The notes beneath the pieces were generated by a model. It was not told where the DNA came from and made no database searches. It worked only from the letters and a program-made list of their open reading frames with translations. The position numbers were made by a program, and so were the translations under genes. This document shows, in pieces, positions 2,385-32,370 of a stretch of DNA of 43,709 nucleotides. Numbering within the stretch: the first letter of the stretch is position 1; the number at the start of each line of letters is the position of its first letter. Origin of the DNA: Vectrevirus T147P1; sequence record OZ035797.1; one strand, written 5' to 3'.

Positions 2385-2663
2385 ATGGCTAATGATTATA
2401 GTAGTCAACCATTAACAGGTAAGTCTAAGAGAAAGCAGGTACAACCTGTAAGTGAAGAACTAATGCTTCCGGTACTCAAAAAAGAGGAAGTTAGTAAGAA
2501 AAGCAATGTTATTAATGATGCCACCAAATCAGGTAAACAGAAAGGGGCCATGGTGTGCCTTGAAGTGGAAGGTGGTGTATTGAAGATTGCTATCGCGGTT
2601 GATGGCAAAGAAGATTCAGAGTGGAAGTTAGTAACAGTGGAACCAACTGTTAACCCAGTTTAA
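2385..2663 (+). CDS. hypothetical small protein, paralog A of tandem pair
   Basis: ATG at 2385 preceded by AGGAGAGAGA; shares SGKQKGAMVxLE...IAxA core with the next ORF; the track ORF from 2319 has a hydrophobic N-extension without SD. Confidence 0.5.
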   Translation: MANDYSSQPLTGKSKRKQVQPVSEELMLPVLKKEEVSKKSNVINDATKSGKQKGAMVCLEVEGGVLKIAIAVDGKEDSEWKLVTVEPTVNPV

Positions 2664-2681
2664 GATAAGGAGGAAGATTAC

Positions 2682-2972
2682 ATGGCTAAATATGGTACTA
2701 CAGGTTCTGTTACTGGTCAGGCTTTTCGAGTAAAAGCAGTACAAACTATTGCAACGGCAATCCCGATGCCTGTTGTTAAAGAAGCAGACCTTAAGAGTAA
2801 AGACCACCCTATCAACATCAAACATTTATCAGGTAAACAGAAAGGTGCAATGGTTGCTCTTGAGAAAGGTGACACAACCCTGCATATTGCTGTTGCACGT
2901 GGCAGTGAACCAACAGACCCTTGGGATGTAACTGGTAGGGAAGAGGAAGCTGTTACTCCAGCAGGGGTATAA
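2682..2972 (+). CDS. hypothetical small protein, paralog B of tandem pair
   Basis: ATG preceded by TAAGGAGGAAG; 96 aa; motif SGKQKGAMVALE shared with the upstream ORF. Confidence 0.55.
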   Translation: MAKYGTTGSVTGQAFRVKAVQTIATAIPMPVVKEADLKSKDHPINIKHLSGKQKGAMVALEKGDTTLHIAVARGSEPTDPWDVTGREEEAVTPAGV

Positions 2973-2974
2973 TA

Positions 2975-3319
2975 ATGCTTAATAAATACTTCAAGCGTAA
3001 AGAGTTTGCTTGCCGTTGTGGCTGCGGTGCATCCACTGTTGATGCTGAATTACTACAGGTAGTAACAGATGTGCGTGAGCACTTTGGTTCTCCTGTAGTT
3101 ATCACTTCGGGGCATCGCTGTGCTAAGCACAATGCTAATGTAGGAGGAGCTAAGAACTCCATGCATCTTACTGGTAAGGCTGCTGACATTAAGGTACGAG
3201 GCATCTTACCTTCTGATGTACATAAGTATCTTACTGATAAGTACCAAGGCAAATATGGGATTGGTAAGTATAACTCCTTTACTCATATTGATGTACGTGA
3301 CGGGTGTGCACGATGGTAG
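2975..3319 (+). CDS. endolysin, peptidase M15-type zinc peptidase (VanY / L-Ala-D-Glu peptidase-like)
   Basis: 114 aa; FACRCGCG, SGHRCAKHN, MHLTGKAAD and FTHIDVRD match the zinc-binding signature of small M15 phage endolysins. Confidence 0.8.
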   Translation: MLNKYFKRKEFACRCGCGASTVDAELLQVVTDVREHFGSPVVITSGHRCAKHNANVGGAKNSMHLTGKAADIKVRGILPSDVHKYLTDKYQGKYGIGKYNSFTHIDVRDGCARW

Positions 3320-3427
3320 GTTGTGTTGCATGGTGTGAACGCATGGTTGCTAAGGCTTCAGAGGAAGGCAACTATGAAGATTGGCAGAACTACTCAACTT
3401 TATTAGCTCAATGGAAAGGGAGATGCA

Positions 3428-3893: not shown

Positions 3894-3916
3894 ATTTACT
3901 GGACACTATAGAAGAG
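3894..3916 (+). promoter_or_regulatory. phage RNAP promoter upstream of tailspike 1
   Basis: ATTTACTGGACACTATAGAAGAG exact consensus. Confidence 0.75.
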
Positions 3917-7849: not shown

Positions 7850-8700
7850 GTTAATATCTTAGTGTACACAAGGGCAGACCTAGGTTTGCTCTTAGTGTAT
7901 TTACAATGGAGGTCTTATGTATATACCTATTGAAGCAATAGTAGGTTGCCTATGTTTGTTGATAGGTTTCGTTATAGGCGTAATAGCAAAGCCTTAGTAC
8001 TGTACAAGGATTAACCAAAGTCAAAATTTTGATATAGGCGTGTGTCAGCTCTCTCGCCCTCGCCCTCGCCGGGTTGTCCCCATATGGGGTCGGTCGGCGG
8101 TTGACCTAGGAATTTGGCGGGGCGGGTCCGTCTTCAACCTGCTGCCGCAGGAAGCTCGACGGGTGGGCGAGGGCTTGCCTTGTACTCGCTTAGTGGTACA
8201 CAAGGAGAACGCCTAGGAAGCGCTAGGGCACGCCTTAGTATTGGACAAGGTGATTGCCTTAGTTCAACCGCTTAGAGCTTACACGGGCCGTTTTAGGGCC
8301 ATTCCTGAGCGTTTGACAGGGTGTGAGGGCGTGGGCTATCTGTTCGTTTCGTTCACTCCGCTTGCGCTACGTTCACTCGCTCACGTGTACCTTAGGTTAT
8401 TCCTTGATGGATAGCTTAGGTTAGCCTTAGTGGATTACCTTAGTTAAAGCCTTAGTGCTTCACTTAGTATCAGCTTAGTAGTGTACCTTAGTAAGTATTA
8501 GTGTCTTCTCTTAGTGATTGCACATGCAAGCATGTAAGATGCCATTAGGTCGCGGTCGGTAGACCGCTAAAGAAGGAGAATAGTAATAAGATGCAGTAGG
8601 AGGAACACCCGAAACCTAGCCAACCTAGCCTATCCTAGCTCTGTATCTATTGCTTTTCCTTAGTCTAACATGTGAGACAACCTAGATTTATCTTAGTGAT
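7850..8700. repeat. genome terminus-like non-coding region with short repeats
   Basis: no long ORF; two copies of CTTAGTG(G)TACACAAGG near 7859 and 8189; GC-rich island with CTCGCC x3 (8053-8070) and CCCCATATGGGG (8078-8089); >10 copies of CCTTAGT/GCTTAG within 8230-8520; resembles the T7 left-end architecture. Confidence 0.5.
8664..8679. repeat. degenerate copy of the palindromic hairpin family
   Basis: GTCTAACATGTGAGAC, one substitution from the GTCTCACATGTGAGAC palindrome. Confidence 0.35.
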
Positions 8701-10001: not shown

Positions 10002-10115
10002 ATGGAAAAGCAATATAACTTTATCTTTTCAGACGGTGTAACCCTGAAGTGTTCCCTACGATTCGCACAAATTCGTGAGGAAGTACTAGGCACTACATAC
10101 AAACTATTTAGCTGA
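10002..10115 (+). CDS. small early protein, possibly gp0.4-like
   Basis: 37-aa ORF after AAGGA, directly downstream of ocr as T7 gene 0.4 is; weak similarity (SDxV...SL..AQ..E). Confidence 0.3.
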   Translation: MEKQYNFIFSDGVTLKCSLRFAQIREEVLGTTYKLFS

Positions 10116-10191
10116 CACTATAAGAGAAGGCTTAACAAGGCGTTACTAAGGTAGCGCCTGATTAAACTTTCACTTACTAGAGGTTAAGATT

Positions 10192-10317: not shown

Positions 10318-10380
10318 ATAGCCTATAGCCTACCTGAGTGGGCTATGTGATATTTACTTACACTATATAAGGTGACTATT

Positions 10381-11367: not shown

Positions 11368-13995
11368 ATGCAAGACCTACACGCTATTCAACTTCAACTT
11401 GAAGAAGAAATGTTTAACGGCGGTATCCGTCGCTTTGAAGCGGACCAACAACGCCAGATTGCATCCGGTAATGAATCAGACACGGCATGGAATCGCCGCT
11501 TATTGTCCGAGTTAATCGCGCCAATGGCTGAAGGTATTCAGGCTTATAAGGAAGAGTACGAAGGCAAGCGCGGTCGTGCACCACGTGCATTGGCTTTCAT
11601 TAACTGCGTAGAAAATGAAGTGGCAGCGTATATCACGATGAAGATCGTAATGGATATGCTTAACACTGATGTAACCTTGCAAGCTATCGCTATGAATGTA
11701 GCTGACCGCATCGAAGACCAAGTGCGCTTCAGTAAACTAGAAGGCCATGCAGCTAAATATTTTGAGAAGGTCAAGAAGTCACTTAAGGCAAGTAAGACTA
11801 AATCATATCGCCATGCGCACAACGTAGCGGTCGTGGCTGAGAAGTCAGTAGCTGACCGTGACGCTGATTTCTCTCGCTGGGAAGCGTGGCCTAAAGATAC
11901 CTTGCTACAAATTGGGATGACCTTGCTTGAAATCTTAGAGAATAGCGTATTCTTCAACGGGCAACCTGTCTTCCTCCGCACCTTGCGCACTAATGGCGGC
12001 AAACATGGTGTTTACTACCTACAGACTAGCGAACACGTGGGTGAATGGATAACTGCATTTAAAGAGCACGTAGCTCAGCTGAGTCCAGCCTATGCGCCTT
12101 GCGTGATTCCTCCTCGTCCGTGGGTGTCACCTTTTAATGGCGGTTTTCACACGGAGAAGGTGGCAAGCCGTATTCGTCTGGTTAAAGGTAACCGCGAGCA
12201 CGTCCGCAAGCTGACCAAAAAGCAAATGCCAGCGGTTTACAAGGCTGTTAACGCCTTACAAGCTACTAAGTGGCAGGTTAACAAGGAAGTATTGCAGGTA
12301 GTAGAAGATGTTATTCGTCTAGACCTCGGTTATGGTGTACCTTCCTTTAAGCCGCTCATTGACCGCGAGAACAAACCAGCTAACCCTGTTCCTCTTGAGT
12401 TCCAGCACCTGCGAGGCCGTGAACTTAAAGAGATGCTAACGCCGGAACAATGGCAAGCCTTTATAAACTGGAAAGGAGAATGTACCAAGCTGTATACCGC
12501 TGAAACTAAGCGCGGAAGCAAGTCGGCGGCGACCGTTCGCATGGTTGGACAAGCCCGTAAATACAGCCAGTTTGACGCAATTTATTTTGTGTATGCACTG
12601 GACAGCCGTTCACGCGTTTATGCGCAATCTAGCACGCTCTCGCCGCAATCAAACGACTTAGGCAAGGCATTGCTCCGTTTTACCGAAGGGCAGCGTCTTG
12701 ATAGCACTGAGGCGCTTAAGTGGTTTTTGGTGAACGGGGCGAATAACTGGGGTTGGGATAAGAAAACTTTTGACGTGCGCACCGCTAACGTGCTGGATAG
12801 CGAATTTCAAGACATGTGCCGCGACATTGCAGCCGACCCGCTGACCTTCACTCAATGGGTAAATGCTGATTCCCCTTATGGCTTCCTTGCATGGTGCTTT
12901 GAATATGCGCGTTATCTGGATGCACTGGACGAAGGAACGCAAGACCAATTCATGACGCACCTACCCGTCCATCAAGATGGTAGTTGCTCTGGTATCCAGC
13001 ACTATAGCGCGATGTTACGAGATGAAGTAGGTGCGAAAGCAGTAAACCTTAAGCCTTCTGACTCCCCTCAAGATATTTATGGCGCGGTTGCGCAGGTTGT
13101 TATCCAGAAGAATTACGCCTACATGAATGCAGACGACGCAGTGACTTTCACATCCGGAAGCGTCACACTTACAGGTGCAGAACTGCGTAGCATGGCTAGT
13201 GCGTGGGATATGATAGGAATCACTCGCGGATTGACCAAAAAGCCCGTAATGACACTACCTTATGGCAGCACACGTCTAACCTGCCGTGAATCAGTGATTG
13301 ATTATATCGTTGATTTAGAAGAAAAAGAGGCCCAACGGGCTATTGCGGAAGGGCGTACCGCCAATCCTGTACACCCTTTTGATAATGACCGTAAAGACAG
13401 CCTGACACCTAGCGCAGCTTATAACTATATGACAGCTTTAATCTGGCCTTCTATTTCGGAAGTGGTTAAAGCTCCTATAGTGGCAATGAAAATGATTCGT
13501 CAGCTTGCCCGTTTCGCAGCTAAAAGGAATGAAGGCTTAGAGTATACCCTGCCTACTGGCTTCATCTTGCAACAAAAGATTATGGCTACTGATATGCTCC
13601 GCGTATCTACTTGCTTGATGGGAGAAATCAAGATGAGTCTACAGATTGAAACGGACGTAGTAGATGAAACGGCAATGATGGGCGCTGCTGCTCCTAACTT
13701 TGTGCATGGTCATGATGCCAGTCACCTTATCTTAACGGTCTGCGACCTTGTTGATAAAGGGATTACATCTATCGCAGTAATTCATGATTCTTTTGGCACT
13801 CATGCAGGCCGTACAGCCGATCTACGCAACAGCTTAAGGGCAGAAATGGTGAAAATGTACCAAGGCCGTAATGCACTGCAAAGCCTGCTAGATGAGCACG
13901 AAGAACGCTGGTTAGTTGATACAGGAATCCAAGTACCAGAGCAAGGGGAGTTTGACCTTAACGAAATCTTAGTTTCAGACTATTGCTTCGCATAA
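11368..13995 (+). CDS. single-subunit DNA-directed RNA polymerase (T7 gene 1 / SP6 RNAP family)
   Basis: 875 aa; [25 protein letters not shown]-terminal SDYCFA; [18 protein letters not shown] matches the T7 RNAP segment AINIAQNTAWKINKKVL. Confidence 0.95.
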
Positions 13996-14002
13996 TATTA
14001 AT

Positions 14003-14034
14003 AGGCCATTCCTTCGGGAGTGGCCTTTCTTTTA
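14003..14034 (+). terminator. early intrinsic terminator after the RNAP gene (TE-like)
   Basis: GGCCATTCC-TTCG-GGAGTGGCC hairpin with UUCG loop followed by TTTCTTTT. Confidence 0.6.
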
Positions 14035-14086: not shown

Positions 14087-14109
14087 ATTTACCGGACACT
14101 ATAGGATAA
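14087..14109 (+). promoter_or_regulatory. phage RNAP promoter (phi1.1A-like)
   Basis: ATTTACCGGACACTATAGGAT. Confidence 0.65.
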
Positions 14110-14269: not shown

Positions 14270-14290
14270 ATTTACCGGACAGTATAGATA
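14270..14290 (+). promoter_or_regulatory. phage RNAP promoter variant (phi1.1B-like)
   Basis: ATTTACCGGACAGTATAGATA; C to G change in the conserved CACTATA core. Confidence 0.45.
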
Positions 14291-14317
14291 AGACTAACTT
14301 ACTTTGGAGATTTAACC

Positions 14318-14449: not shown

Positions 14450-14668
14450 ATGGCTAAATACAGAATCAAGACCTGTTTAAATAGTCACGGGCAAGAGTTC
14501 TACGTAGTGCAACGTAAAGTATTAGGCTTAATATGGGTCACTTGTATGATGCCTATTGGCTATACTGATACAGAGGCTATCTTCTGCACCGAAAGGGATG
14601 CAAAGAAGTTTATCTCTAAGCGTAGAAAAGCTGACTCTTACCAACCTAGAATTATTAAGGTGAACTAA
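14450..14668 (+). CDS. hypothetical protein
   Basis: 72-aa ORF between the gp1.1-like gene and primase/helicase; 4-nt spacing upstream, overlapping stop/start downstream. Confidence 0.5.
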   Translation: MAKYRIKTCLNSHGQEFYVVQRKVLGLIWVTCMMPIGYTDTEAIFCTERDAKKFISKRRKADSYQPRIIKVN

Positions 14669-16656
14669 TGGCTATTATTAATAACATCCCGTGCCCTGCC
14701 TGTCAAAAGAATGGACATGATATTACTGGCAACCATCTTATGATATTTGAGGATGGCGCTGGTTACTGTAACCGTGGTCACTTCCATGATAATGGTAAGC
14801 CTTATTACCATAAGCCAGAGGGTGGTATCGAGATAACCGAATTGCCTATTACTGGCAATATCAAATATACACCTTCTCAATTCAAAGAAATGGAGAAGGA
14901 AGGGAAGATAAGCGACCCTAAGCTACGCGCCATCGCTCTTGGTGGTATGCGTATGAAAGACCGTTGGGAGGTCATGAATGAGCAAGAAAGGGCAGACCAA
15001 GAAGCAGAGTGGAAACTTGATGTTGAATGGTTCCTCACGCTTAAGCGTAAGAACCTTGTTTCCAGACACATTCGCGGCGACATTTGCGCATTGTATGATG
15101 TACGTGTCGGACACGATGAAGAGGGTAGAGTCTCGCGGCATTACTATCCACGCTTCGAGAAAGGTGAGCTAGTAGGAGCTAAGTGTCGCACATTACCTAA
15201 AGATTTTAAGTTTGGTCATTTAGGTAAACTCTTTGGTATGCAAGATCTTTTCGGTATGAATACTTTGTCTCACGTGTTAGACAAGGGGAGACGAAAGGAT
15301 TGCTTGCTTATTGTAGGCGGTGAACTTGATGCACTAGCAGCGCAGCAGATGCTCCTTGATTCTGCCAAGGGTACTAAGTGGGAGGGTCAGCCATACCATG
15401 TATGGTCTGTCAACAAAGGTGAGTCTTGCCTTGAAGAGATAGTGCAGAACCGTGAGCATATCGCCCAATTCAAGAAGATTATATGGGGTTTTGATGGAGA
15501 TGAGGTAGGGCAGAAGCAGAATCAGCAAGCGGCTCGCCTGTTTCCTGGCAAATCCTATATCCTTGAATACCCCTCTGGTTGCAAAGATGCTAACAAGGCA
15601 TTGATGGCTGGCAAGGCTAAAGAATTTGTAGATGCATGGTTTAATGCCAAGTCATCTGATGAAGTCTTTGGTAGCCAGATTAAATCTATCGCATCTCAAA
15701 GGGATAAGCTCAAGGCTGCACGTCCAGAGCAAGGACTATCATGGCCTTGGCCTAAGCTGAACAAGGTAACGCTAGGTATTCGTAAGAACCAGCTTATCAT
15801 TGTAGGTGCAGGGTCTGGTGTAGGTAAGACTGAGTTCCTTCGTGAAGTAGTTAAGCACCTCATTGAAGAACACGGTGAATCTGTAGGCATCATTTCTACA
15901 GAAGACCCGATGGTCAAGGTGTCCCGTGCTTTTATCGGCAAGTGGATTGATAAGCGTATTGAGTTACCGCCAACCAACGACCCGAAAGAAGACGGATACC
16001 GTGAGGTGTTCGACTACACCGAGGAAGAAGCTAACGCCGCCATTGATTATGTAGCTGATACAGGTAAGCTGTTTGTAGCTGACCTAGAGGGTGACTATTC
16101 GATGGAAAAGGTAGAGCAAACTTGCCTAGAGTTTGAGGCTATGGGCATTTCTAATATCATCATTGATAACTTAACGGGGATTAAATTAGATGAGCGTGCT
16201 TTTGGTGGGAAGGTTGGTGCACTTGATGAATGCGTCAAGCGGATTGGTACTATCAAAGACCGACACCCGGTTACTATATTCCTTGTATCACACCTTACAC
16301 GTCCTCCGGCAAACCGTACCCAACACGAAGAAGGTGGCGAGGTTATCCTTTCTGACTTCCGAGGCTCAGGCGCTATCGGATTCTGGGCATCTTACGCCTT
16401 GGGGATTGAGCGTAACACAAGAGCTGAAACGCTTGACGAAAGGACTACCACGTACATCTCATGTGTCAAAGACCGCGACCAAGGTATCTACACTGGAACC
16501 AAGGTCATGCTTAAGGGTGACATTCAAACCGGACGTTTAATGGAACCACAAGCCCGTACTAAGTCATTTGATACAGGTGAAGCAAGGCAACAAGAAGTAC
16601 CAGATTTACCGGACACTATAGAAGAGACTAACTTCGATGAAGAAAGTGAGTTCTGA
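14668..16656 (+). CDS. DNA primase/helicase (T7 gp4-like)
   Basis: 662 aa; N-terminal zinc ribbon CPACQ...CNRGH; Walker A GAGSGVGKTE; acidic C-terminus ending EESEF. Confidence 0.9.
   Translation: MAIINNIPCPACQKNGHDITGNHLMIFEDGAGYCNRGHFHDNGKPYYHKPEGGIEITELPITGNIKYTPSQFKEMEKEGKISDPKLRAIALGGMRMKDRWEVMNEQERADQEAEWKLDVEWFLTLKRKNLVSRHIRGDICALYDVRVGHDEEGRVSRHYYPRFEKGELVGAKCRTLPKDFKFGHLGKLFGMQDLFGMNTLSHVLDKGRRKDCLLIVGGELDALAAQQMLLDSAKGTKWEGQPYHVWSVNKGESCLEEIVQNREHIAQFKKIIWGFDGDEVGQKQNQQAARLFPGKSYILEYPSGCKDANKALMAGKAKEFVDAWFNAKSSDEVFGSQIKSIASQRDKLKAARPEQGLSWPWPKLNKVTLGIRKNQLIIVGAGSGVGKTEFLREVVKHLIEEHGESVGIISTEDPMVKVSRAFIGKWIDKRIELPPTNDPKEDGYREVFDYTEEEANAAIDYVADTGKLFVADLEGDYSMEKVEQTCLEFEAMGISNIIIDNLTGIKLDERAFGGKVGALDECVKRIGTIKDRHPVTIFLVSHLTRPPANRTQHEEGGEVILSDFRGSGAIGFWASYALGIERNTRAETLDERTTTYISCVKDRDQGIYTGTKVMLKGDIQTGRLMEPQARTKSFDTGEARQQEVPDLPDTIEETNFDEESEF
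16604..16626 (+). promoter_or_regulatory. phage RNAP promoter inside the 3' end of the helicase gene
   Basis: ATTTACCGGACACTATAGAAGAG. Confidence 0.6.
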
Positions 16657-16673
16657 TTAGTGTATTTATCAGG

Positions 16674-16697
16674 GCTTGTCTCACATGTGAGACAGGC
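16674..16697. repeat. palindromic hairpin element (family copy C)
   Basis: GCTTGTCTCACATGTGAGACAGGC; 18-bp perfect palindrome core plus flanking pairs, followed by TCTTATT. Confidence 0.6.
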
Positions 16698-16732
16698 TCT
16701 TATTAAGTACATTAAATAACTGGAGATTAACT

Positions 16733-17416
16733 ATGTGCAAATTAGTATTAAATGAAGGTGATAGGGTTCGTAATATTAATACACAATCTGAACGTAGAGG
16801 TTGGATTGGTTATGTAGGTGTCATTTCAGAGAACTATTATACTGTTATGTACACTAATGGTCATGCTCAAAGCTATCTTAAGCGATTAGCCCATAAATAT
16901 CTTGAGAAAATTGTAGAAGCAGACAACCAATGCAAGTGTATACATGATGAACTTTGTTATAAGTGTGCTCGCCAGATGCATAAGATGTCACTATTCCCTA
17001 CTCGCTATGGTGCTGGCATTCAAACCTTAGCAGAGGCATACGGCAAAGGTAAGACTACACTTAATAAAGATCGCCGCAATGTAATCACTGGTAAGACTCA
17101 AAGTGAAATGATTAAGCAATGTGGCACTGCACTAGGTGTTACGCAGTTTAACACTCGTGCTCTTGGTAAATCCACAGGACAAGCTATGGTAAAGATTGGC
17201 GAAGCCATGATGCATCCAAATGTACCTGTACGAATCATGGATGTTGACCATGCAATCACAGAACACGGTACGCAACGACGTGTAATTAATAAGCATTTTG
17301 CCGACACTATAGAAGGTATTATTCGTAAGCAAGGGTTGAAAGGTCTTCACATCTTGAATGATGAAGAGTTACTGTACCTCCCTATTGTTACTGAAGAAAC
17401 CTACGTGAATATCTAA
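16733..17416 (+). CDS. hypothetical protein
   Basis: 227-aa ORF after GGAGATTAACT; Cys cluster CKCIHDELCYKC; no recognised catalytic motif. Confidence 0.55.
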   Translation: MCKLVLNEGDRVRNINTQSERRGWIGYVGVISENYYTVMYTNGHAQSYLKRLAHKYLEKIVEADNQCKCIHDELCYKCARQMHKMSLFPTRYGAGIQTLAEAYGKGKTTLNKDRRNVITGKTQSEMIKQCGTALGVTQFNTRALGKSTGQAMVKIGEAMMHPNVPVRIMDVDHAITEHGTQRRVINKHFADTIEGIIRKQGLKGLHILNDEELLYLPIVTEETYVNI

Positions 17417-17426
17417 GGAGCTAATC

Positions 17427-17648
17427 ATGACTAAAGTTCTTATTTATATTGGATGGAATGGTTGCAAACACTACGCCATAGTAGCACCCAATGGTGTCAA
17501 AAGATATGGTGGTGAAAAGTGGATTGCGTTGATTGGTGCAAAGATGTGTGCTAGTTTCCAGATGACGCTTACAGGTCATCTGACTGAAAAGCAATTTCGT
17601 AAAGAGCATAAAGTCATTGGCAGCTTCATGGTGAAACATGCAGAATAA
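17427..17648 (+). CDS. hypothetical protein
   Basis: 73-aa ORF after TAAGGAG. Confidence 0.5.
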   Translation: MTKVLIYIGWNGCKHYAIVAPNGVKRYGGEKWIALIGAKMCASFQMTLTGHLTEKQFRKEHKVIGSFMVKHAE

Positions 17649-17844: not shown

Positions 17845-17965
17845 TTTCATCATATTGATTGGAGGTGCATTATGCCACGTGATTATGATTCTGATTGGGA
17901 CTATTATGACTCAATGAATCCAAAACCCGAACGTTCAGATGATTACTACGAAACAGAGGCAATGT

Positions 17966-20512
17966 ATGAAGATTATTGATTGGAAGAATGAGGCAGAAGG
18001 TCGTATCCTCGTGATGGATGCGGAAGCTAAAGGACTCCTTGACGCTATCCGATATGGGCACCGTGAAGATGTGCATATCATTTGCTGCATGGATTTGCTT
18101 ACTACCGAGGAGTTTCTCTTCTTTGACCCGTATGAGATGCGTGACCCTGAAGCAAGAGAACGCCTGAAGGAATGGGAAGGTCATCAAGATGGAACCTTGG
18201 TTGACGGTGTTAACTTCCTGAAGCACTGTGAGGCTATTGTGTCGCAGAACTTCCTAGGGTATGACGGTCTTCTCTTTGAGAAAGCATTCCCTGATATTTG
18301 GAAAGGCTTTAACTATACCGAGAAGCGCGGCAAGGGCAGACTCCGTGCTGACCTGTGTCCGGTGCGAGTCATGGATACGCTGGTGATGAGTCGCCTGTTA
18401 AACCCCGATAGACGCCTTCCTCCGCAAGCATATGCCAAAGGTATGGGTAACGTCGCCCCTCACTCAATTGAGGCGCACGGCATCCGTATAGGCCGCTATA
18501 AACCAGAGAACGAGGACTGGTCTAAACTAACTGATCACATGGTTCACCGTGTACGTGAGGATGTGGCGATTGGTCGTGACCTATTCCTCTGGCTCTTTAA
18601 CGGGGAATGGATGGAGCACAAACGCCGTGGCGTGAACAAACGTACTGGCCTAGGGATTGAGACAGCCTTCCACATGGAGTCCATTGTGGCGCTGGAGATG
18701 AGCCGTCAGGCCGAGCGCGGGTTCCGTCTGGATATTGACAAAGCACTAGCGCGATGCGAAGAATTGGACGCTAAGATTGACGAGACAGTCGCAGCGTTCC
18801 GCCCTCACATGCCTATGCGTATCAAGTCTAAACCTTTTAAACCGGAAGAAAAGAATGAAGTATGCCAACGCGCAAATGAGTATGGAGCTAGCAACAATAT
18901 ACCCACTGTCCTTGACCCCTCACACTTTCTTCATGCCGAGAGACGAGGAGATCGCAAGACAGTATGGAGTGTCACTACTAAGTCTGGTGATTGGTCGGCT
19001 AGTGTCAAGAAAGACTTTCCTCACCTTAGAGGAAACCGTAATGACACGCCAAGCATCAAGTGGATTGGCGCTTACTCGCCTGTTACTTTCGAAGAGATCC
19101 CCTTGGGTAACAGGGATACAGTTAAGCAAGTGCTCTATGATTATGGATGGAAGGGTGTTGAATTTAATGATACCGAGCAAGCACACCTTGATGAGTATGG
19201 AGTGTTACCCAAACCTTGGAGTGGGAAGATAAATGAAAAGTCCCTTACTTTATGGCAAGAGAGAGCCGCACGTGAAGGTAAAACAGTACCCGATTGGTGC
19301 TTGGGTATCGCTGCATGGTACATACTCGTATCCCGTCGTGGTCAGATCCTCAACCGTGGTGACGTTGAAGCCTTCAACGAGAAAGGGACGTGGCCTTCGC
19401 AAGCTGGTGTACGAAAGTGTCGCGGCCTTGTACCTGTAGCATTTAACAAGGAGCTAGGAATCAATGCGCAGCAATACTACGAGAGGTACGGATGCTGGCC
19501 TACGTCAGACAAGGATGACGGAGAGTGGCGTGTTCCAGCTGTTGCTATTAGCATTGGCACTTCTACGTTCCGTATGCGTCATCGTAACGTGGTTAATATT
19601 CCTGCCCGTGGCTTGTATCCTTTACGTGATTTATTCATAGCAGGGAAAGGCAAGCTAATCCTTGGTTGTGACGGTGCAGGTCTTGAACTGCGTGTCCTGT
19701 CTCACTTCATGAATGACCCTGAGTACCAAGAGATTGTACTGCACGGTGATATTCATACGCATAACCAGATGAAGGCTGGTCTTCCTAAGCGTGATATGGC
19801 GAAGACGTTTATATACGCCTTCCTCTATGGCTCTGGTATAGCCAACCTTGCAGCAGTATGTGGTGTTACTGAGGAAGAAATGAAGGAAGTTGTGGCAAGA
19901 TTCGAGATTGAACTGCCGTCTCTTGCACGTCTTCGTGAGAATGTTATCGCACAAGGTAACAAGTTTGGCTACCTGCAAGCACCTGATGGGCATTGGGGTC
20001 GCATCCGCATGTCTGGTGGTGAACTTAAAGAGCACACGATGCTTAACGTATTACTCCAGATGACTGGCTCTTTGTGTATGAAATATGCATTAGTCAAGGC
20101 ATTTGCAGTAATGCGCAAGGAAGGTGTAGCCTTGGATGCTATGGGAAATCCTTGTGGTGTGGCTAACGTGCATGATGAAATCCAGATGGAAGTTCCTGAA
20201 GAGGAGGTCTTGTATCTTAACTACGACCTACCTTTCACCTTAGATGGGTTCGAAACAGAGAAGGCTGCCGTGAAAGCAGTGTTCGATGCAGAGGAGAAAC
20301 GTGTTCATGTGGATTCTGAAGGACGTATGTGGTCTGCTGCAAACCTCGTTAGTGTTGATGCTGATGCTGGTGTATTGCATTGCCAGCGCCGTTATCACCG
20401 TGCAGGTCATATCATTGCCGACGCCATGACTTGGGCAGGGCAGTATCTGAAGATGCGTTGCCCGATGGCAGGCGAATATAAGATTGGCGCAAGTTGGAAG
20501 GAAACACACTGA
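17966..20512 (+). CDS. DNA polymerase, family A (T7 gp5-like) with 3'-5' exonuclease domain
   Basis: ATG at 17966 after AGAGG; Exo I-like LVMDAEAKG; polymerase motifs DGAGLELRVLSH, KTFIYAFLYGSG, VHDEIQ. Confidence 0.9.
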   Translation: MKIIDWKNEAEGRILVMDAEAKGLLDAIRYGHREDVHIICCMDLLTTEEFLFFDPYEMRDPEARERLKEWEGHQDGTLVDGVNFLKHCEAIVSQNFLGYDGLLFEKAFPDIWKGFNYTEKRGKGRLRADLCPVRVMDTLVMSRLLNPDRRLPPQAYAKGMGNVAPHSIEAHGIRIGRYKPENEDWSKLTDHMVHRVREDVAIGRDLFLWLFNGEWMEHKRRGVNKRTGLGIETAFHMESIVALEMSRQAERGFRLDIDKALARCEELDAKIDETVAAFRPHMPMRIKSKPFKPEEKNEVCQRANEYGASNNIPTVLDPSHFLHAERRGDRKTVWSVTTKSGDWSASVKKDFPHLRGNRNDTPSIKWIGAYSPVTFEEIPLGNRDTVKQVLYDYGWKGVEFNDTEQAHLDEYGVLPKPWSGKINEKSLTLWQERAAREGKTVPDWCLGIAAWYILVSRRGQILNRGDVEAFNEKGTWPSQAGVRKCRGLVPVAFNKELGINAQQYYERYGCWPTSDKDDGEWRVPAVAISIGTSTFRMRHRNVVNIPARGLYPLRDLFIAGKGKLILGCDGAGLELRVLSHFMNDPEYQEIVLHGDIHTHNQMKAGLPKRDMAKTFIYAFLYGSGIANLAAVCGVTEEEMKEVVARFEIELPSLARLRENVIAQGNKFGYLQAPDGHWGRIRMSGGELKEHTMLNVLLQMTGSLCMKYALVKAFAVMRKEGVALDAMGNPCGVANVHDEIQMEVPEEEVLYLNYDLPFTLDGFETEKAAVKAVFDAEEKRVHVDSEGRMWSAANLVSVDADAGVLHCQRRYHRAGHIIADAMTWAGQYLKMRCPMAGEYKIGASWKETH

Positions 20513-20784: not shown

Positions 20785-21045
20785 ATGATTAAATATACTG
20801 CTTATCAGTTAACTAAAGACCGTAAGATAGGTATTGAGGTTAAGGCTTGGGAGCGAGGTCATATCTCTGGAGTAATAGAGGTGCGTTCCAATGAAGGTAT
20901 GATGATTAGAAGACACTTTAGTTTCGCTAAATCTACTTGTAAGCATTTAACAGAGGAACAATTCTTACATCATATTATTAATAATATTAAAGCTATCCAG
21001 CCTTATGCCAAGCAAGTTGTAGGTAATGTCACAGTAGTACATTGA
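20785..21045 (+). CDS. hypothetical protein
   Basis: 86-aa ORF after AAGGAAATATT. Confidence 0.5.
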   Translation: MIKYTAYQLTKDRKIGIEVKAWERGHISGVIEVRSNEGMMIRRHFSFAKSTCKHLTEEQFLHHIINNIKAIQPYAKQVVGNVTVVH

Positions 21046-21066
21046 TTTACTGGACACTATAGAAGG
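21045..21066 (+). promoter_or_regulatory. phage RNAP promoter
   Basis: ATTTACTGGACACTATAGAAGG. Confidence 0.7.
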
Positions 21067-21131
21067 AAAGCCTAGACAATCTAGGTTTATAAGGTAGTAT
21101 AGGTAATTAAGTAAATATAGGAGATATAAAC

Positions 21132-21509
21132 ATGTCTATGGTAACTACTCTGGTATTTGTAGCTCAATACTTTCGTGGTCTGGCTAATAAGTTCAAGTCC
21201 AAGGCTATCAAAGCTATTGAGTCTCGCATCGAGGCAGTACAGGCAGAGCAAGTTAAAGTTGAAGAACATCGTAGTTCTCAAATGATTGACTGCCATAACC
21301 GCTACTATGAATCTCGTGATGACCTTAATGCACGCCAAGTCAAAGAGGTTGAAGAGATGCTGGCACGTCACCAGCAAGAGCGCGACAGCCTGAAAGCTGA
21401 ATTTGAAGAGAACAAGGCATCCATCGCCCTTGTACATCAAGCCGCATCTGACAGCCTGAAGAAAGAGATTGTTATGCTGGAAATTGAGTTAGACAACCTG
21501 ACCAAATAA
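21132..21509 (+). CDS. hypothetical protein (hydrophobic N-terminus, coiled-coil-like)
   Basis: 125-aa ORF after TAGGAGATATAAAC. Confidence 0.5.
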   Translation: MSMVTTLVFVAQYFRGLANKFKSKAIKAIESRIEAVQAEQVKVEEHRSSQMIDCHNRYYESRDDLNARQVKEVEEMLARHQQERDSLKAEFEENKASIALVHQAASDSLKKEIVMLEIELDNLTK

Positions 21510-21530
21510 TTACTGGACACTATAGAACAA
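21508..21530 (+). promoter_or_regulatory. phage RNAP promoter
   Basis: AATTACTGGACACTATAGAACAA. Confidence 0.65.
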
Positions 21531-22653: not shown

Positions 22654-22676
22654 ATTTACTGGACACTATAGAAGAG
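22654..22676 (+). promoter_or_regulatory. phage RNAP promoter
   Basis: ATTTACTGGACACTATAGAAGAG exact consensus. Confidence 0.75.
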
Positions 22677-22726: not shown

Positions 22727-23098
22727 ATGTTCAAGATTGAAACTATCGTAAACCGTGTTGTTAAAGGTGCTGCTCTGGTATCCGTTGAGTCTTTCATTAT
22801 CGTCGATGAAGCTGATCAACTGGTAGCTGGTACTAAGGCTTACGATACCCGTGAAGAAGCTCAGGCTAAGATTGACAGCATGGGTAACTTCGCTGCTGGT
22901 CTGGAGTTCGCTCGTGCTTGCTTCCCTGAGCAGGCTGACAAAGCTCAGATTGGTAAGGCTAATATCGTAGCTGAATATCTGGATTGGGTTGCTGCTGGTA
23001 AACCAGTGAAAGAAGTTAAGGCTGCTGAAGAAGCTGAAGCTCCAGCAGAAGAAGTAGCTGCACCGGAAACTCCGGTAAGCGAAGAGGAAGAATTTTGA
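22727..23098 (+). CDS. small acidic protein with C-terminal EEEEF tail; function unknown
   Basis: 123 aa; strong SD AAAAGGAGAA; own promoter upstream and terminator-like hairpin downstream. Confidence 0.6.
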   Translation: MFKIETIVNRVVKGAALVSVESFIIVDEADQLVAGTKAYDTREEAQAKIDSMGNFAAGLEFARACFPEQADKAQIGKANIVAEYLDWVAAGKPVKEVKAAEEAEAPAEEVAAPETPVSEEEEF

Positions 23099-23157
23099 TA
23101 ATAGCAGGTGTTGCCTCTGTTAGTCCTGGTTGACTATCACGCTCACCTCATCTAATG

Positions 23158-23190
23158 CCCTGTCTGCCTTAGTGTAGGCAGGGTCTTTTG
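23158..23190 (+). terminator. terminator-like hairpin after the small acidic protein gene
   Basis: CCCTGTCTGCC-TTAGTGTA-GGCAGGG followed by TCTTTTG. Confidence 0.45.
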
Positions 23191-24848: not shown

Positions 24849-25848
24849 GCTTCGCAGCTTGTACAAAGACTCCGAGGTACTTGATGCAATCGAGCAAGCT
24901 ACCGACGAGAAAGGTAATGTTAATTACAATGAGATGGCACGTGTATTATCGTGTCACCCTGTGGGTAAGAAGATTACCCGCCAGTTGGCTCGATACTGGC
25001 ATGGTCAATTCAAGAAGACCAAGAAGAATGGTGATTATTACCAGACCCTTCTGCAAGAAGATAAGCGTATCAAAGAAGAGCGTAAGCTCAGGACTCCTGA
25101 CCGCTACGAGGATTTGGCTATTGTACCATTGCCTGACTCGCCTCATCGAAGTGTACTGGTAATCCCTGATACTCATGCACCTTATGAGCATCCAGATACC
25201 TTAGAGTTCCTTGCAGCAGTCGCGGCACGTTACCGTCCAGATACAGTGGTTCACTTAGGAGATGAGGCAGATAAACACGCCCTCTCCTTCCATGACTCTG
25301 ACCCGAATCTGGATAGTGCTGGCATGGAGCTAGAGAAGTCTCGTGTCTTCATGCACAAATTGCACAAGATGTTCCCTGTGATGAGACTGTGTCACTCCAA
25401 CCACGGCTCTATGCACTTCCGTAAGGCAAGCGCTAAGGGCATCCCTGTGCAATACCTGCGCACCTACCGTGAAGTCTTCTTCCCGCAGGGAGGTGGCGAC
25501 CAGTGGGATTGGCAACATACGCACGTCCTTGAGTTGCCGAATGGTGAACAAGTGGCATTCAAGCATCAACCTGCTGGCTCTGTCCTAGCAGATGCAGCGC
25601 ATGAGCGTATGAACCTTGTGTGTGGTCACTTGCACGGTAAGATGTCTGTGGAGTACGCACGTAATACACATGAACAGTATTGGGCTGTGCAAGGTGGCTG
25701 CTTAATTGATGAGTCATCCCGTGCATTTGCCTATGGTCGTGAGTCTAAATACAAGCCAGCATTAGGTTGTGTGGTCATTCTGGAGGGTGTACCTCATATT
25801 GTCCCGATGCAAACCAATAGCGACAACCGTTGGATTGGCAAGATTTAG
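24841..25848 (+). CDS. calcineurin-like metallophosphoesterase
   Basis: TTG start at 24841 after AAGGAGG (the track ORF from 24709 overlaps the previous gene); motifs IPDTHAPY, HLGDEAD, HSNHG, GHLHG. Confidence 0.65.
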   Translation: MGKLRSLYKDSEVLDAIEQATDEKGNVNYNEMARVLSCHPVGKKITRQLARYWHGQFKKTKKNGDYYQTLLQEDKRIKEERKLRTPDRYEDLAIVPLPDSPHRSVLVIPDTHAPYEHPDTLEFLAAVAARYRPDTVVHLGDEADKHALSFHDSDPNLDSAGMELEKSRVFMHKLHKMFPVMRLCHSNHGSMHFRKASAKGIPVQYLRTYREVFFPQGGGDQWDWQHTHVLELPNGEQVAFKHQPAGSVLADAAHERMNLVCGHLHGKMSVEYARNTHEQYWAVQGGCLIDESSRAFAYGRESKYKPALGCVVILEGVPHIVPMQTNSDNRWIGKI

Positions 25849-25865
25849 TTGACACTATAGAACAA
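25843..25865 (+). promoter_or_regulatory. phage RNAP promoter variant
   Basis: ATTTAGTTGACACTATAGAACAA; differs from consensus at -12 to -10. Confidence 0.5.
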
Positions 25866-31046: not shown

Positions 31047-31069
31047 ATTTACTGGACACTATAGAAGGG
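31047..31069 (+). promoter_or_regulatory. phage RNAP promoter upstream of the capsid gene (phi10-like)
   Basis: ATTTACTGGACACTATAGAAGGG exact consensus; downstream strong SD TAAGGAGA. Confidence 0.8.
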
Positions 31070-32335: not shown

Positions 32336-32370
32336 GCCCTATCTACCTTGCGTAGGTAGGGTTATTTTTG
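32336..32370 (+). terminator. phage late terminator after the capsid gene (Tphi-like)
   Basis: CCCTATCTAC-CTTGC-GTAGGTAGGG hairpin followed by TTATTTTTG. Confidence 0.7.

Follow-up and report, generated by a model that had tools for sequence, protein, structure and literature searches.

The genome of the coliphage Vectrevirus T147P1 (OZ035797.1; 43,709 nt, the whole of which is called the window here) carries three copies of a T7/SP6-type promoter that lie entirely inside translated genes: at the end of the primase/helicase gene (16604-16626), within the gene for gp10 (17295-17317) and within the small terminase gene (121-143). We consider it probable, at about 0.8, that these are embedded copies of the phage's own promoter acting in the manner set out below. 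The sequences and positions of the three sites, their non-random occurrence, their conservation, their covariation across lineages and their codon bias are established. Comparison of related genomes strongly supports the helicase-end copy as a working phage promoter that determines the protein sequence at that spot. The window is a complete genome of the K1E/K1-5 type, circularly permuted (Vectrevirus, subfamily Molineuxvirinae, SP6 supergroup), with the gene order of K1-5 and K1E once a circular permutation beginning inside the small terminase gene is allowed for, and the ~6-kb stretch around 16604-17316 is about 91-96% identical in nucleotide sequence to dozens of Vectrevirus genomes, including K1E and vB_EcoP_B. 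The embedded promoters are presumably read by the single-subunit T7/SP6-type RNA polymerase (RNAP) encoded on the + strand at 11368-13995 (PF00940, 5e-90; PF14700), which shares 99.2% identity with the K1-5 enzyme and 85.5% with that of SP6.

The promoter is a 23-bp element (-17 to +6) with the consensus ATTTAC(C/T)GGACACTATAGAAG(A/G)(G/A), transcription starting at the G of GAAG. A weight matrix built solely from the 10 intergenic copies and scanned over both strands of the whole genome identified 13 sites at 19.5-37.8 bits, every one of them on the + strand; the background is far lower, with the next match in the genome at 9.0 bits and the top of 20 shuffled genomes at 12.6 bits. Searched with a tolerance of up to 2 mismatches, the 13-nt core GACACTATAGAAG matches 14 times where 1.19 are expected, a count that none of 100 shuffles reached. 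Promoters shun coding DNA, only 3 of the 13 being wholly within genes in a genome that is 89% coding (binomial P = 6e-8); the other 10 lie between genes, 4 of them sharing 1-6 nt with the end of the preceding gene. The copies sit 25-350 nt upstream of gene starts, in the same orientation as the genes. Because promoters otherwise avoid coding DNA, the embedded copies are exceptions that need a reason. The first-pass annotation had reported a consensus promoter near the end of the helicase gene at 16604, a near-consensus sequence inside the 16733-17416 open reading frame (ORF) and a partial one in the small terminase gene. The first is confirmed, scoring 37.0 bits. The positions of the other two hold as well (17295-17316 and 121-143), but their ranking is reversed, since the terminase site (25.7 bits) fits the consensus better than the gp10 site (19.5 bits).

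What might the embedded sites share with working promoters of this class? The exact GACACTATAGAAG core is present in all three, and the invariant class core around -9 to +1 is GACACTATAG. The AT-rich element at -17 to -13 reads ATTTA at 16604, ATTTT at 17295 and CAATA at 121. Positions -8 to -12 have been described as promoter specificity determinants in T7-like phages (PMC4099482); over this region the genome consensus is C(C/T)GGA, and the embedded sites read CCGGA (16604), CTGGA (121) and, departing from it, GCCGA (17295). GAA at +1 to +3, the most active initiating sequence for SP6 RNAP (PMC7429497), is found in each of them. Leaders from the embedded sites span 112 nt for 16604, 115 nt for 17295, whose G17312 is followed by the ATG of the next gene at 17427, and 188 nt for 121, which lies that far upstream of the large terminase ORF. 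A sigma-70 promoter scan around the sites gave matches no more numerous than in shuffles, and no start-site or transcriptome study of Vectrevirus or of an SP6-like phage was found in the literature searched.

All three embedded sites are translated in the same frame, GAC-ACT-ATA-GAA, giving Asp-Thr-Ile-Glu (DTIE). Two frames of the promoter core are free of stop codons, the DTIE frame being one, and the third contains TAG. With the codon usage of this genome, the probability of GACACTATAGAA given DTIE is 0.012 per occurrence and 1.7e-6 for three. Every one of the three DTIE peptides in the proteome uses exactly these codons, and the sole other DTI is written GAT ACA ATA. Because the exact codon set is so improbable and ATA is rare (14% of the Ile codons in the genome), the promoter motif is not a by-product of the peptide. 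The suggestion of the first-pass annotation that embedded promoters constrain codon choice is borne out, both by this codon set and by the small terminase site, where all changes run toward the promoter, as described below.

The helicase-end site, ATTTACCGGACACTATAGAAGAG (+ strand, +1 at G16621), begins 53 nt before the end of the stop codon and occupies codons 646-653 of the primase/helicase gene (14668-16656, + strand; gene 9 of K1E and K1-5), and its score is level with those of the strongest intergenic promoters. The protein has Pfam Toprim and DnaB_C domains, the latter covering residues 357-604 of 662, and the promoter falls beyond DnaB_C in the acidic C-terminal tail (ending in VPDLPDTIEETNFDEESEF). 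This tail ends in an aromatic residue, as does the tail of T7 gp4. A promoter is sensibly placed here, outside the helicase domain and in a part of the tail where lineages differ in their residues.

To what extent those differences follow the polymerase can be seen among relatives gathered via gp10, SP6 gp11 and the helicase (loci numbered with the prefix L), for each lineage of which a promoter consensus was derived from its own intergenic copies. There are six promoter specificities among these lineages, and the helicase end carries the own-type promoter in all six, in every lineage compared just ahead of the last 24-36 nt of the gene. The Vectrevirus promoter ATTTACCGGACACTATAGAAGAG is accompanied by the tail VPDLPDTIEE, the SP6-type promoter AATTAGGTGACACTATAGAAGAG by VPDELGDTIEE, that of L037 (IMGVR_UViG_3300045988_000861), ATATGTGTTGCACTATAGAAGAT, by VPDDMCCTIED, that of Klebsiella phage K22PH164C1 (L015), CAATAGTGGCGAGTATAGAAGAG, by VPEPIVASIEE, that of L041, ACTTAGGGCGGACTATAGAACAA, by VPDLGRTIEQ, and that of L042, AATTAGAGACCACTATAGAAGAA, by VPELETTIEE. 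The RNAP segment aligned to the T7 specificity loop varies between lineages in step with the promoters, for example DIKMSLQVETD in SP6 versus DVFMSLQVDTD in L037. Because the helicase-end site is rewritten at the same codons whenever RNAP specificity changes, selection on it as a promoter is strongly indicated. As judged from these alignments, the DNA signal outranks the protein at 16604, with tail residues changing to spell the new promoter. Two further relatives, L005 (6372) and L006 (6371), have a G-to-A change at -10 within the helicase-end promoter.

The small terminase site, CAATACTGGACACTATAGAAGAA (+ strand, +1 at G138), lies inside the T7 gp18-like small terminase ORF (30-329, + strand; PF11123, phrog_891). 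Its match to the consensus is perfect over -14 to +5 but does not include the ATT of -17 to -15, and the site outscores the leave-one-out values (23.4 and 21.1 bits) of two accepted intergenic variants. The site is found in K1-5 and in nearly all Vectrevirus small terminase genes sampled. In SP6 and SP6-type homologues the same region, AQAILDAIEDDPD, is encoded by the ordinary codons GCA ATC CTC GAT GCT ATC GAG GAT/GAC, where Vectrevirus has GCA ATA CTG GAC ACT ATA GAA GAA. Of the seven changes between the two versions, five are synonymous and two replace a residue (Ala with Thr, Asp with Glu); all are promoter-ward, and the site looks like a Vectrevirus-specific gain under DNA-level selection. 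It is likely that site 121 has promoter activity. The L020 copy of this site has a T at -7, the same change that is seen in the helicase-end promoter of K1-5.

The third site, ATTTTGCCGACACTATAGAAGGT (17295-17317, + strand, +1 at G17312), is a variant promoter-like sequence inside the ORF at 16733-17416 (+ strand), which encodes the 227-aa homologue of K1E/K1-5 gp10 (phrog_6703), a protein of unassigned function with no Pfam match. The stretch 17295-17316 reads ATTTTGCCGACACTATAGAAGG, for which 0 matches are expected in shuffles. The surrounding 50 nt (17283-17332) match 75 phage records at 89-100% identity, the core of the site is intact in all 14 sequences read, and four records from the lower-identity part of the listing are identical to the window from -17 to +4, with mismatches in the flanks. 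The DTIE codons here are all invariant, versus 43% of comparable codons (p about 0.03). SP6-type phages carry their own-type site, TATTACGTGACACTATAGG (T[AGC]TTACGTGACACTATAGG), in the homologous gp11; the SP6-type and Vectrevirus internal sites do not align, because the SP6-type copy is four codons further on. Within the SP6-type clade the five codons TTA CGT GAC ACT ATA (L-R-D-T-I) are invariant, versus 34% (p about 0.0045). Taken together, the sequence comparisons tip slightly in favour of site 17295 initiating transcription at a biologically meaningful level.

The gp10 gene is frameshifted in two metagenome-derived relatives, L012 (6501-7079) and L013 (560-994), with the promoter-like core intact in both; the 1-nt deletion in L012 brings the promoter's own TAG into frame as the gp10 stop codon. 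Either sequencing error or genuine decay of a gene that the phage can do without could account for these frameshifts. An IMG/VR pattern scan with the gp10 site and its downstream sequence returned no contigs beyond those already collected. A further embedded promoter-like site, CGCTAGGTGACACTATAGGTGCC, is present inside gene 36 of SP6 (L003, 29393-29415), where it is read in the GAC-ACT-ATA frame and has the start GGTG, the same as in the gp11-internal site.

Several observations weigh against the view that all three embedded copies are phage promoters. Within the genus, the helicase-end site has 3 variable positions of 23 versus a mean of 3.2 for the helicase gene (11 Vectrevirus sequences); as this conservation is no better than the gene background, we rely on the cross-lineage covariation. 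The helicase-end promoter of K1-5 (L002, 8320-8342, GGATACTATAG) has a C-to-T change at -7. Most of the comparison loci are uncultivated IMG/VR contigs, and L037 may be a chimeric assembly. The constraint on site 121 is not absolute, because some relatives vary inside its core (-7 T in L020, -8 G in L026 and +3 G in L022). The gp10 site (17295) ranks lowest of the 13 and has three departures from consensus, T at -13, G at -12 and C at -10; accepted promoter copies do include G at -12 and C at -11, but none of these has C at -10 or anything other than A at -13. No own-type promoter was found within this gene in L011, L015, L041 or L042. In L037, all six orthologous promoters, the helicase-end one among them, switched to TGTTGCACTATAG, yet the gp11-internal site stayed SP6-type (GTGACACTATAG), synonymous positions included, and an important promoter should have switched.

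The mismatched specificity region of site 17295, its absence from four lineages and the unswitched counterpart in L037 would all be expected if only the helicase-end site works, and if 17295, perhaps together with 121, is promoter-like in sequence and poorly or never used by the resident RNAP. Such a reading would also accord with the overall conservation of the C-terminal half of Vectrevirus gp10, beside which the four-codon invariance reaches just p about 0.03, and with the apparent dispensability of gp10, which has frameshifts in L012 and L013 and has been deleted from L043. We regard it as possible but rather doubtful, and it is as tentatively that non-working copies could be seen as relics of promoter-mediated recombination or gene conversion, kept by slow evolution and by a DTIE peptide that suits the protein. 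The exact 13-nt core together with ATTT is not a chance expectation, and ATA is a rare codon. Two sister clades hold promoter-like cores at different codons of one homologous gene, with the synonymous positions fully invariant in each, and the lower-identity phage records checked are mismatched in the flanks and not from -17 to +4. The C at -10 may be tolerated, because accepted Vectrevirus promoters vary at this position, having G, T or A. The claim of embedded phage promoters in the first-pass annotation stands for 16604, which tracks six specificities, and is plausible for 121 and 17295, in the case of 17295 tempered by the L037 site and by the four lineages without a gp10/gp11 site.

Since L037 keeps an SP6-type site despite its changed specificity loop and other promoters, a role for the gp10/gp11 core that is independent of recognition by the resident phage RNAP was also considered. 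The core might serve as a site for the polymerase of a co-infecting relative, as a pause or binding site for replication priming, or as a recombination hotspot, but we judge any such role to be improbable. A selected recombination hotspot, if true, would let gp10 be gained and lost.

Equally hard to credit is that the embedded copies are chiefly dispersed repeats, acting as recombination substrates or module junctions for gene loss or swap, with transcription secondary. In its favour is L043, an SP6-type genome without gp11, the junction of which is the expected product of recombination between two promoter copies: its upstream half consists of an HNH-gene end plus promoter, as in L058, and its downstream half is sequence past the gp11-internal site. 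Because the HNH endonuclease end in L058 (..KSHKGWTI) abuts the helicase-end promoter, L043, where a full-consensus promoter precedes a 3' remnant of gp11, is read as having lost sequence through recombination of the helicase-end with the gp11-internal promoter copy. The alternative, in which the internal site of L043 improved to consensus after release from its coding role, was dropped, as L058 shows the same HNH end and promoter. Recombination is the simpler account of the L043 arrangement than selection on the internal site, and this too counts against the embedded-promoter reading. The arrangement indicates that the phage can do without gp11 and that deletions can arise through repeated promoters, and it is silent on whether the internal copy fires. 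It is, however, a single example. No gp10-deleted hybrid junction, with the helicase-end promoter fused to sequence after 17312, was found among the Vectrevirus or other phage records, and dispersed repeats would leave unexplained both the tracking of RNAP specificity by the helicase-end site in six lineages and the shared orientation and 25-350 nt spacing to gene starts. In L058 (Vectrevirus PDP21P3, OZ035769.1, about 2411-3007) and L043 (6022-6504), the HNH endonuclease gene ends in SGKRKSHKGWTI and is inserted after a helicase with a promoter-less tail (ending in VPEEVVDKGGFIADEVEEF and VPEEGEVTGADETQEF), its 3' end merging with a promoter copy, beyond which L058 still has the original helicase-tail codons, now orphaned.

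That the matches are a coding by-product of a conserved Asp-Thr-Ile-Glu peptide is effectively refuted by these comparisons: DTIE is indeed in frame at all three sites and each clade conserves DTI(E/G) in its protein, but, besides the improbable codon set, the promoter match reaches 8 nt upstream of the peptide, the peptide of other lineages changes to spell another promoter (MCCTIE, VASIE, GRTIE, ETTIE), and SP6-type terminases spell DAIE with ordinary codons.

Between the helicase-end promoter and the ATG of gene 10 lies a conserved extended hairpin (16657-16715, + strand) containing the palindrome GTCTCACATGTGAGAC. The fold of 16621-16740 has an energy of -36.5 kcal/mol (z = -4.1), and the hairpin shows compensatory changes relative to SP6, which makes it a candidate RNase III-like RNA processing site in the 5' leader; an Rfam scan of the window gave zero matches. 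K1E (L001) has an extra small gene, 9.5 (3159-3320), between the helicase stop codon and this conserved hairpin, so that the gene is flanked by the retained helicase-end promoter on one side and by the hairpin on the other. The perfect 16-bp palindrome GTCTCAC(A/G)(T/C)GTGAGAC is repeated in intergenic regions, often beside promoters, in seven or eight copies in the genome (16 nt each, at 8663, 14069, 14249, 16678, 17825, 22623 and 39234). Its flanks prolong the stems to 25-30 bp, with G.U pairs that are workable only in + strand RNA, and it is upheld by compensatory changes to GTCTAACATGTTGGAC in SP6, to GTCCAACGTGTTGGAC in L037 and L041 (4-5 copies) and to GTCCAACGCGTTGGAC in L015. The repeated palindrome is a candidate RNase III/processing hairpin or dimer-binding site.

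The only strong + strand terminator-like hairpins near the sites are a hairpin with T-run after the RNAP gene (14003-14026), a G+C-rich hairpin followed by a T-run after the ORF at 22727-23098 (23157-23184), and a hairpin with T-run immediately 3' of the major capsid gene, at the place of Tphi in T7 (32336-32362). These three are probably the main transcript boundaries, and 23157-23184 is a possible 3' boundary for transcripts from 16621 or 17312. Because terminator-like hairpins are rare, nested, 3'-co-terminal mRNAs are expected. The nested transcription units proposed in the first-pass annotation are thus retained for this genome as a deduction from the scarcity of such hairpins and from the T7 paradigm only.

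How, then, would the embedded promoters serve the phage? After early host transcription, the phage RNAP would start at the 23-bp promoters, all of them directed rightward. From sequence we infer initiation at G16621, G138 and G17312, the relative strengths of the three sites and the extents of their transcripts. Site 16604 would be a full-strength promoter of the middle (DNA-metabolism) class, and the transcript starting at G16621 would consist of a 112-nt leader with a processing-type hairpin, followed by gene 10, genes 10.5 to 12 and the gene for the family-A DNA polymerase (17939-20512, + strand; Pfam and PHROGs). Site 121, gained by Vectrevirus, would most likely act with moderate strength and raise the amount of large-terminase mRNA from G138, and 17295 would most likely contribute weak additional transcription of genes 10.5 to DNA polymerase. 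Transcripts from 16621 and 17312 would overlap each other and those from upstream, sharing 3' ends as in T7.

The ten remaining copies, all on the + strand, are those from which the weight matrix was built. At 2226-2248 and 21508-21530 the promoter overlaps the upstream stop codon by 2 nt, the last two bases of that codon supplying -17 and -16; at 21045-21067 the overlap with the upstream gene is 1 nt, and at 25843-25865 the promoter covers the last 6 nt of the upstream gene. Intergenic copies are also found at 3894-3916, 14087-14109 (3' of the RNAP gene), 22654-22676 and 31047-31069 (ahead of the major capsid gene), with variant copies at 10106-10128 (ATTTAGCTGACACTATAAGAGAA) and 14270-14292 (GACAGTATAGATAAG). 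A promoter-like sequence, TATTTACTTACACTATATAAGGT, at 10351-10373 lies directly upstream of the GTG at 10372 that starts the homologue of K1-5 gene 6; it is one base short before ACACTATA, is without G at +1, and does not score as a promoter by the weight matrix. Similar sequences are conserved in L007 (338), L010 (218) and K1-5 (around 2331).

Embedded promoters of the T7/SP6 type are already known and are ordinary architecture, documented since the annotation of the T7 genome. T7 phi4c (12672) lies inside gene 4 (4A/4B, 11566-13266) and, like 16604, is a promoter for the phage's own RNAP within the primase/helicase gene; both direct transcription toward the DNA polymerase gene. Unlike 16604, which is confined to the last 53 nt of the gene, in the tail past DnaB_C, phi4c is located about 600 nt from the 3' end of gene 4, in the helicase part, and the two belong to different promoter sequence classes (TAATACGACTCACTATAG against ATTTACCGGACACTATAG). 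A closer positional analogue is T7 phi4.3, just after genes 4/4.2, but it is intergenic. In seven or more T7 promoters, phi1.3, phi1.5, phi1.6, phi2.5, phi4.3, phi9 and phi17 among them, -17 falls in the upstream stop codon, an economy of space that the four end-overlapping intergenic promoters of the window (1-6 nt) share. Those T7 overlaps are limited to the stop codon and so impose no amino-acid constraint, whereas the three embedded sites of the window are fully translated. All three sites recur in K1-5, at 8320 (end of gene 9, the copy with -7 T), 9010 (gp10) and 35488 (gp39). The gene 9 and gp10 sites are present in K1E, and SP6 has a site at the end of gene 10 (8411) and one in gp11 (9112, four codons off the Vectrevirus position) but none in the terminase. 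Promoter features are absent from the GenBank records of K1E, K1-5 and SP6. The genome papers of 2004 and 2006 reportedly list predicted promoters.

The RNAP of L037 (1304-3991) is 92.6% identical to SP6 RNAP, yet its promoter, found at 103, 4093, 4262, 6383, 10663, 11125 and 12749, is ATTTGTGTTGCACTATAGAAG, with changes at -13, -12, -9 and -8. By sequence, the two make up natural, closely related RNAP/promoter pairs of different specificity. Other distinct promoter consensus sequences are TAATAGTGGCGAGTATAGAAGAG in L015, AATTAGGGCGGACTATAGAACAA in L041 and AATTAGAGACCACTATAGAAGAA in L042. Natural RNAP/promoter pairs of differing specificity may interest builders of orthogonal transcription systems.

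Little is changed in the understanding of these phages, since the same sites are present in the long-sequenced K1-5, K1E and SP6. For annotation, Vectrevirus records give these stretches as 'hypothetical protein' or 'primase/helicase', and the promoters are missed. For engineering, promoters would be lost unnoticed if the tail of the helicase, gp10 or the small terminase of engineered K1 phages were recoded or truncated. The way in which promoter and helicase tail covary across lineages illustrates dual coding clearly and introduces no new principle: a DNA signal may override the protein, as in L037, where Cys-Cys in an acidic tail would be there purely to spell a promoter.

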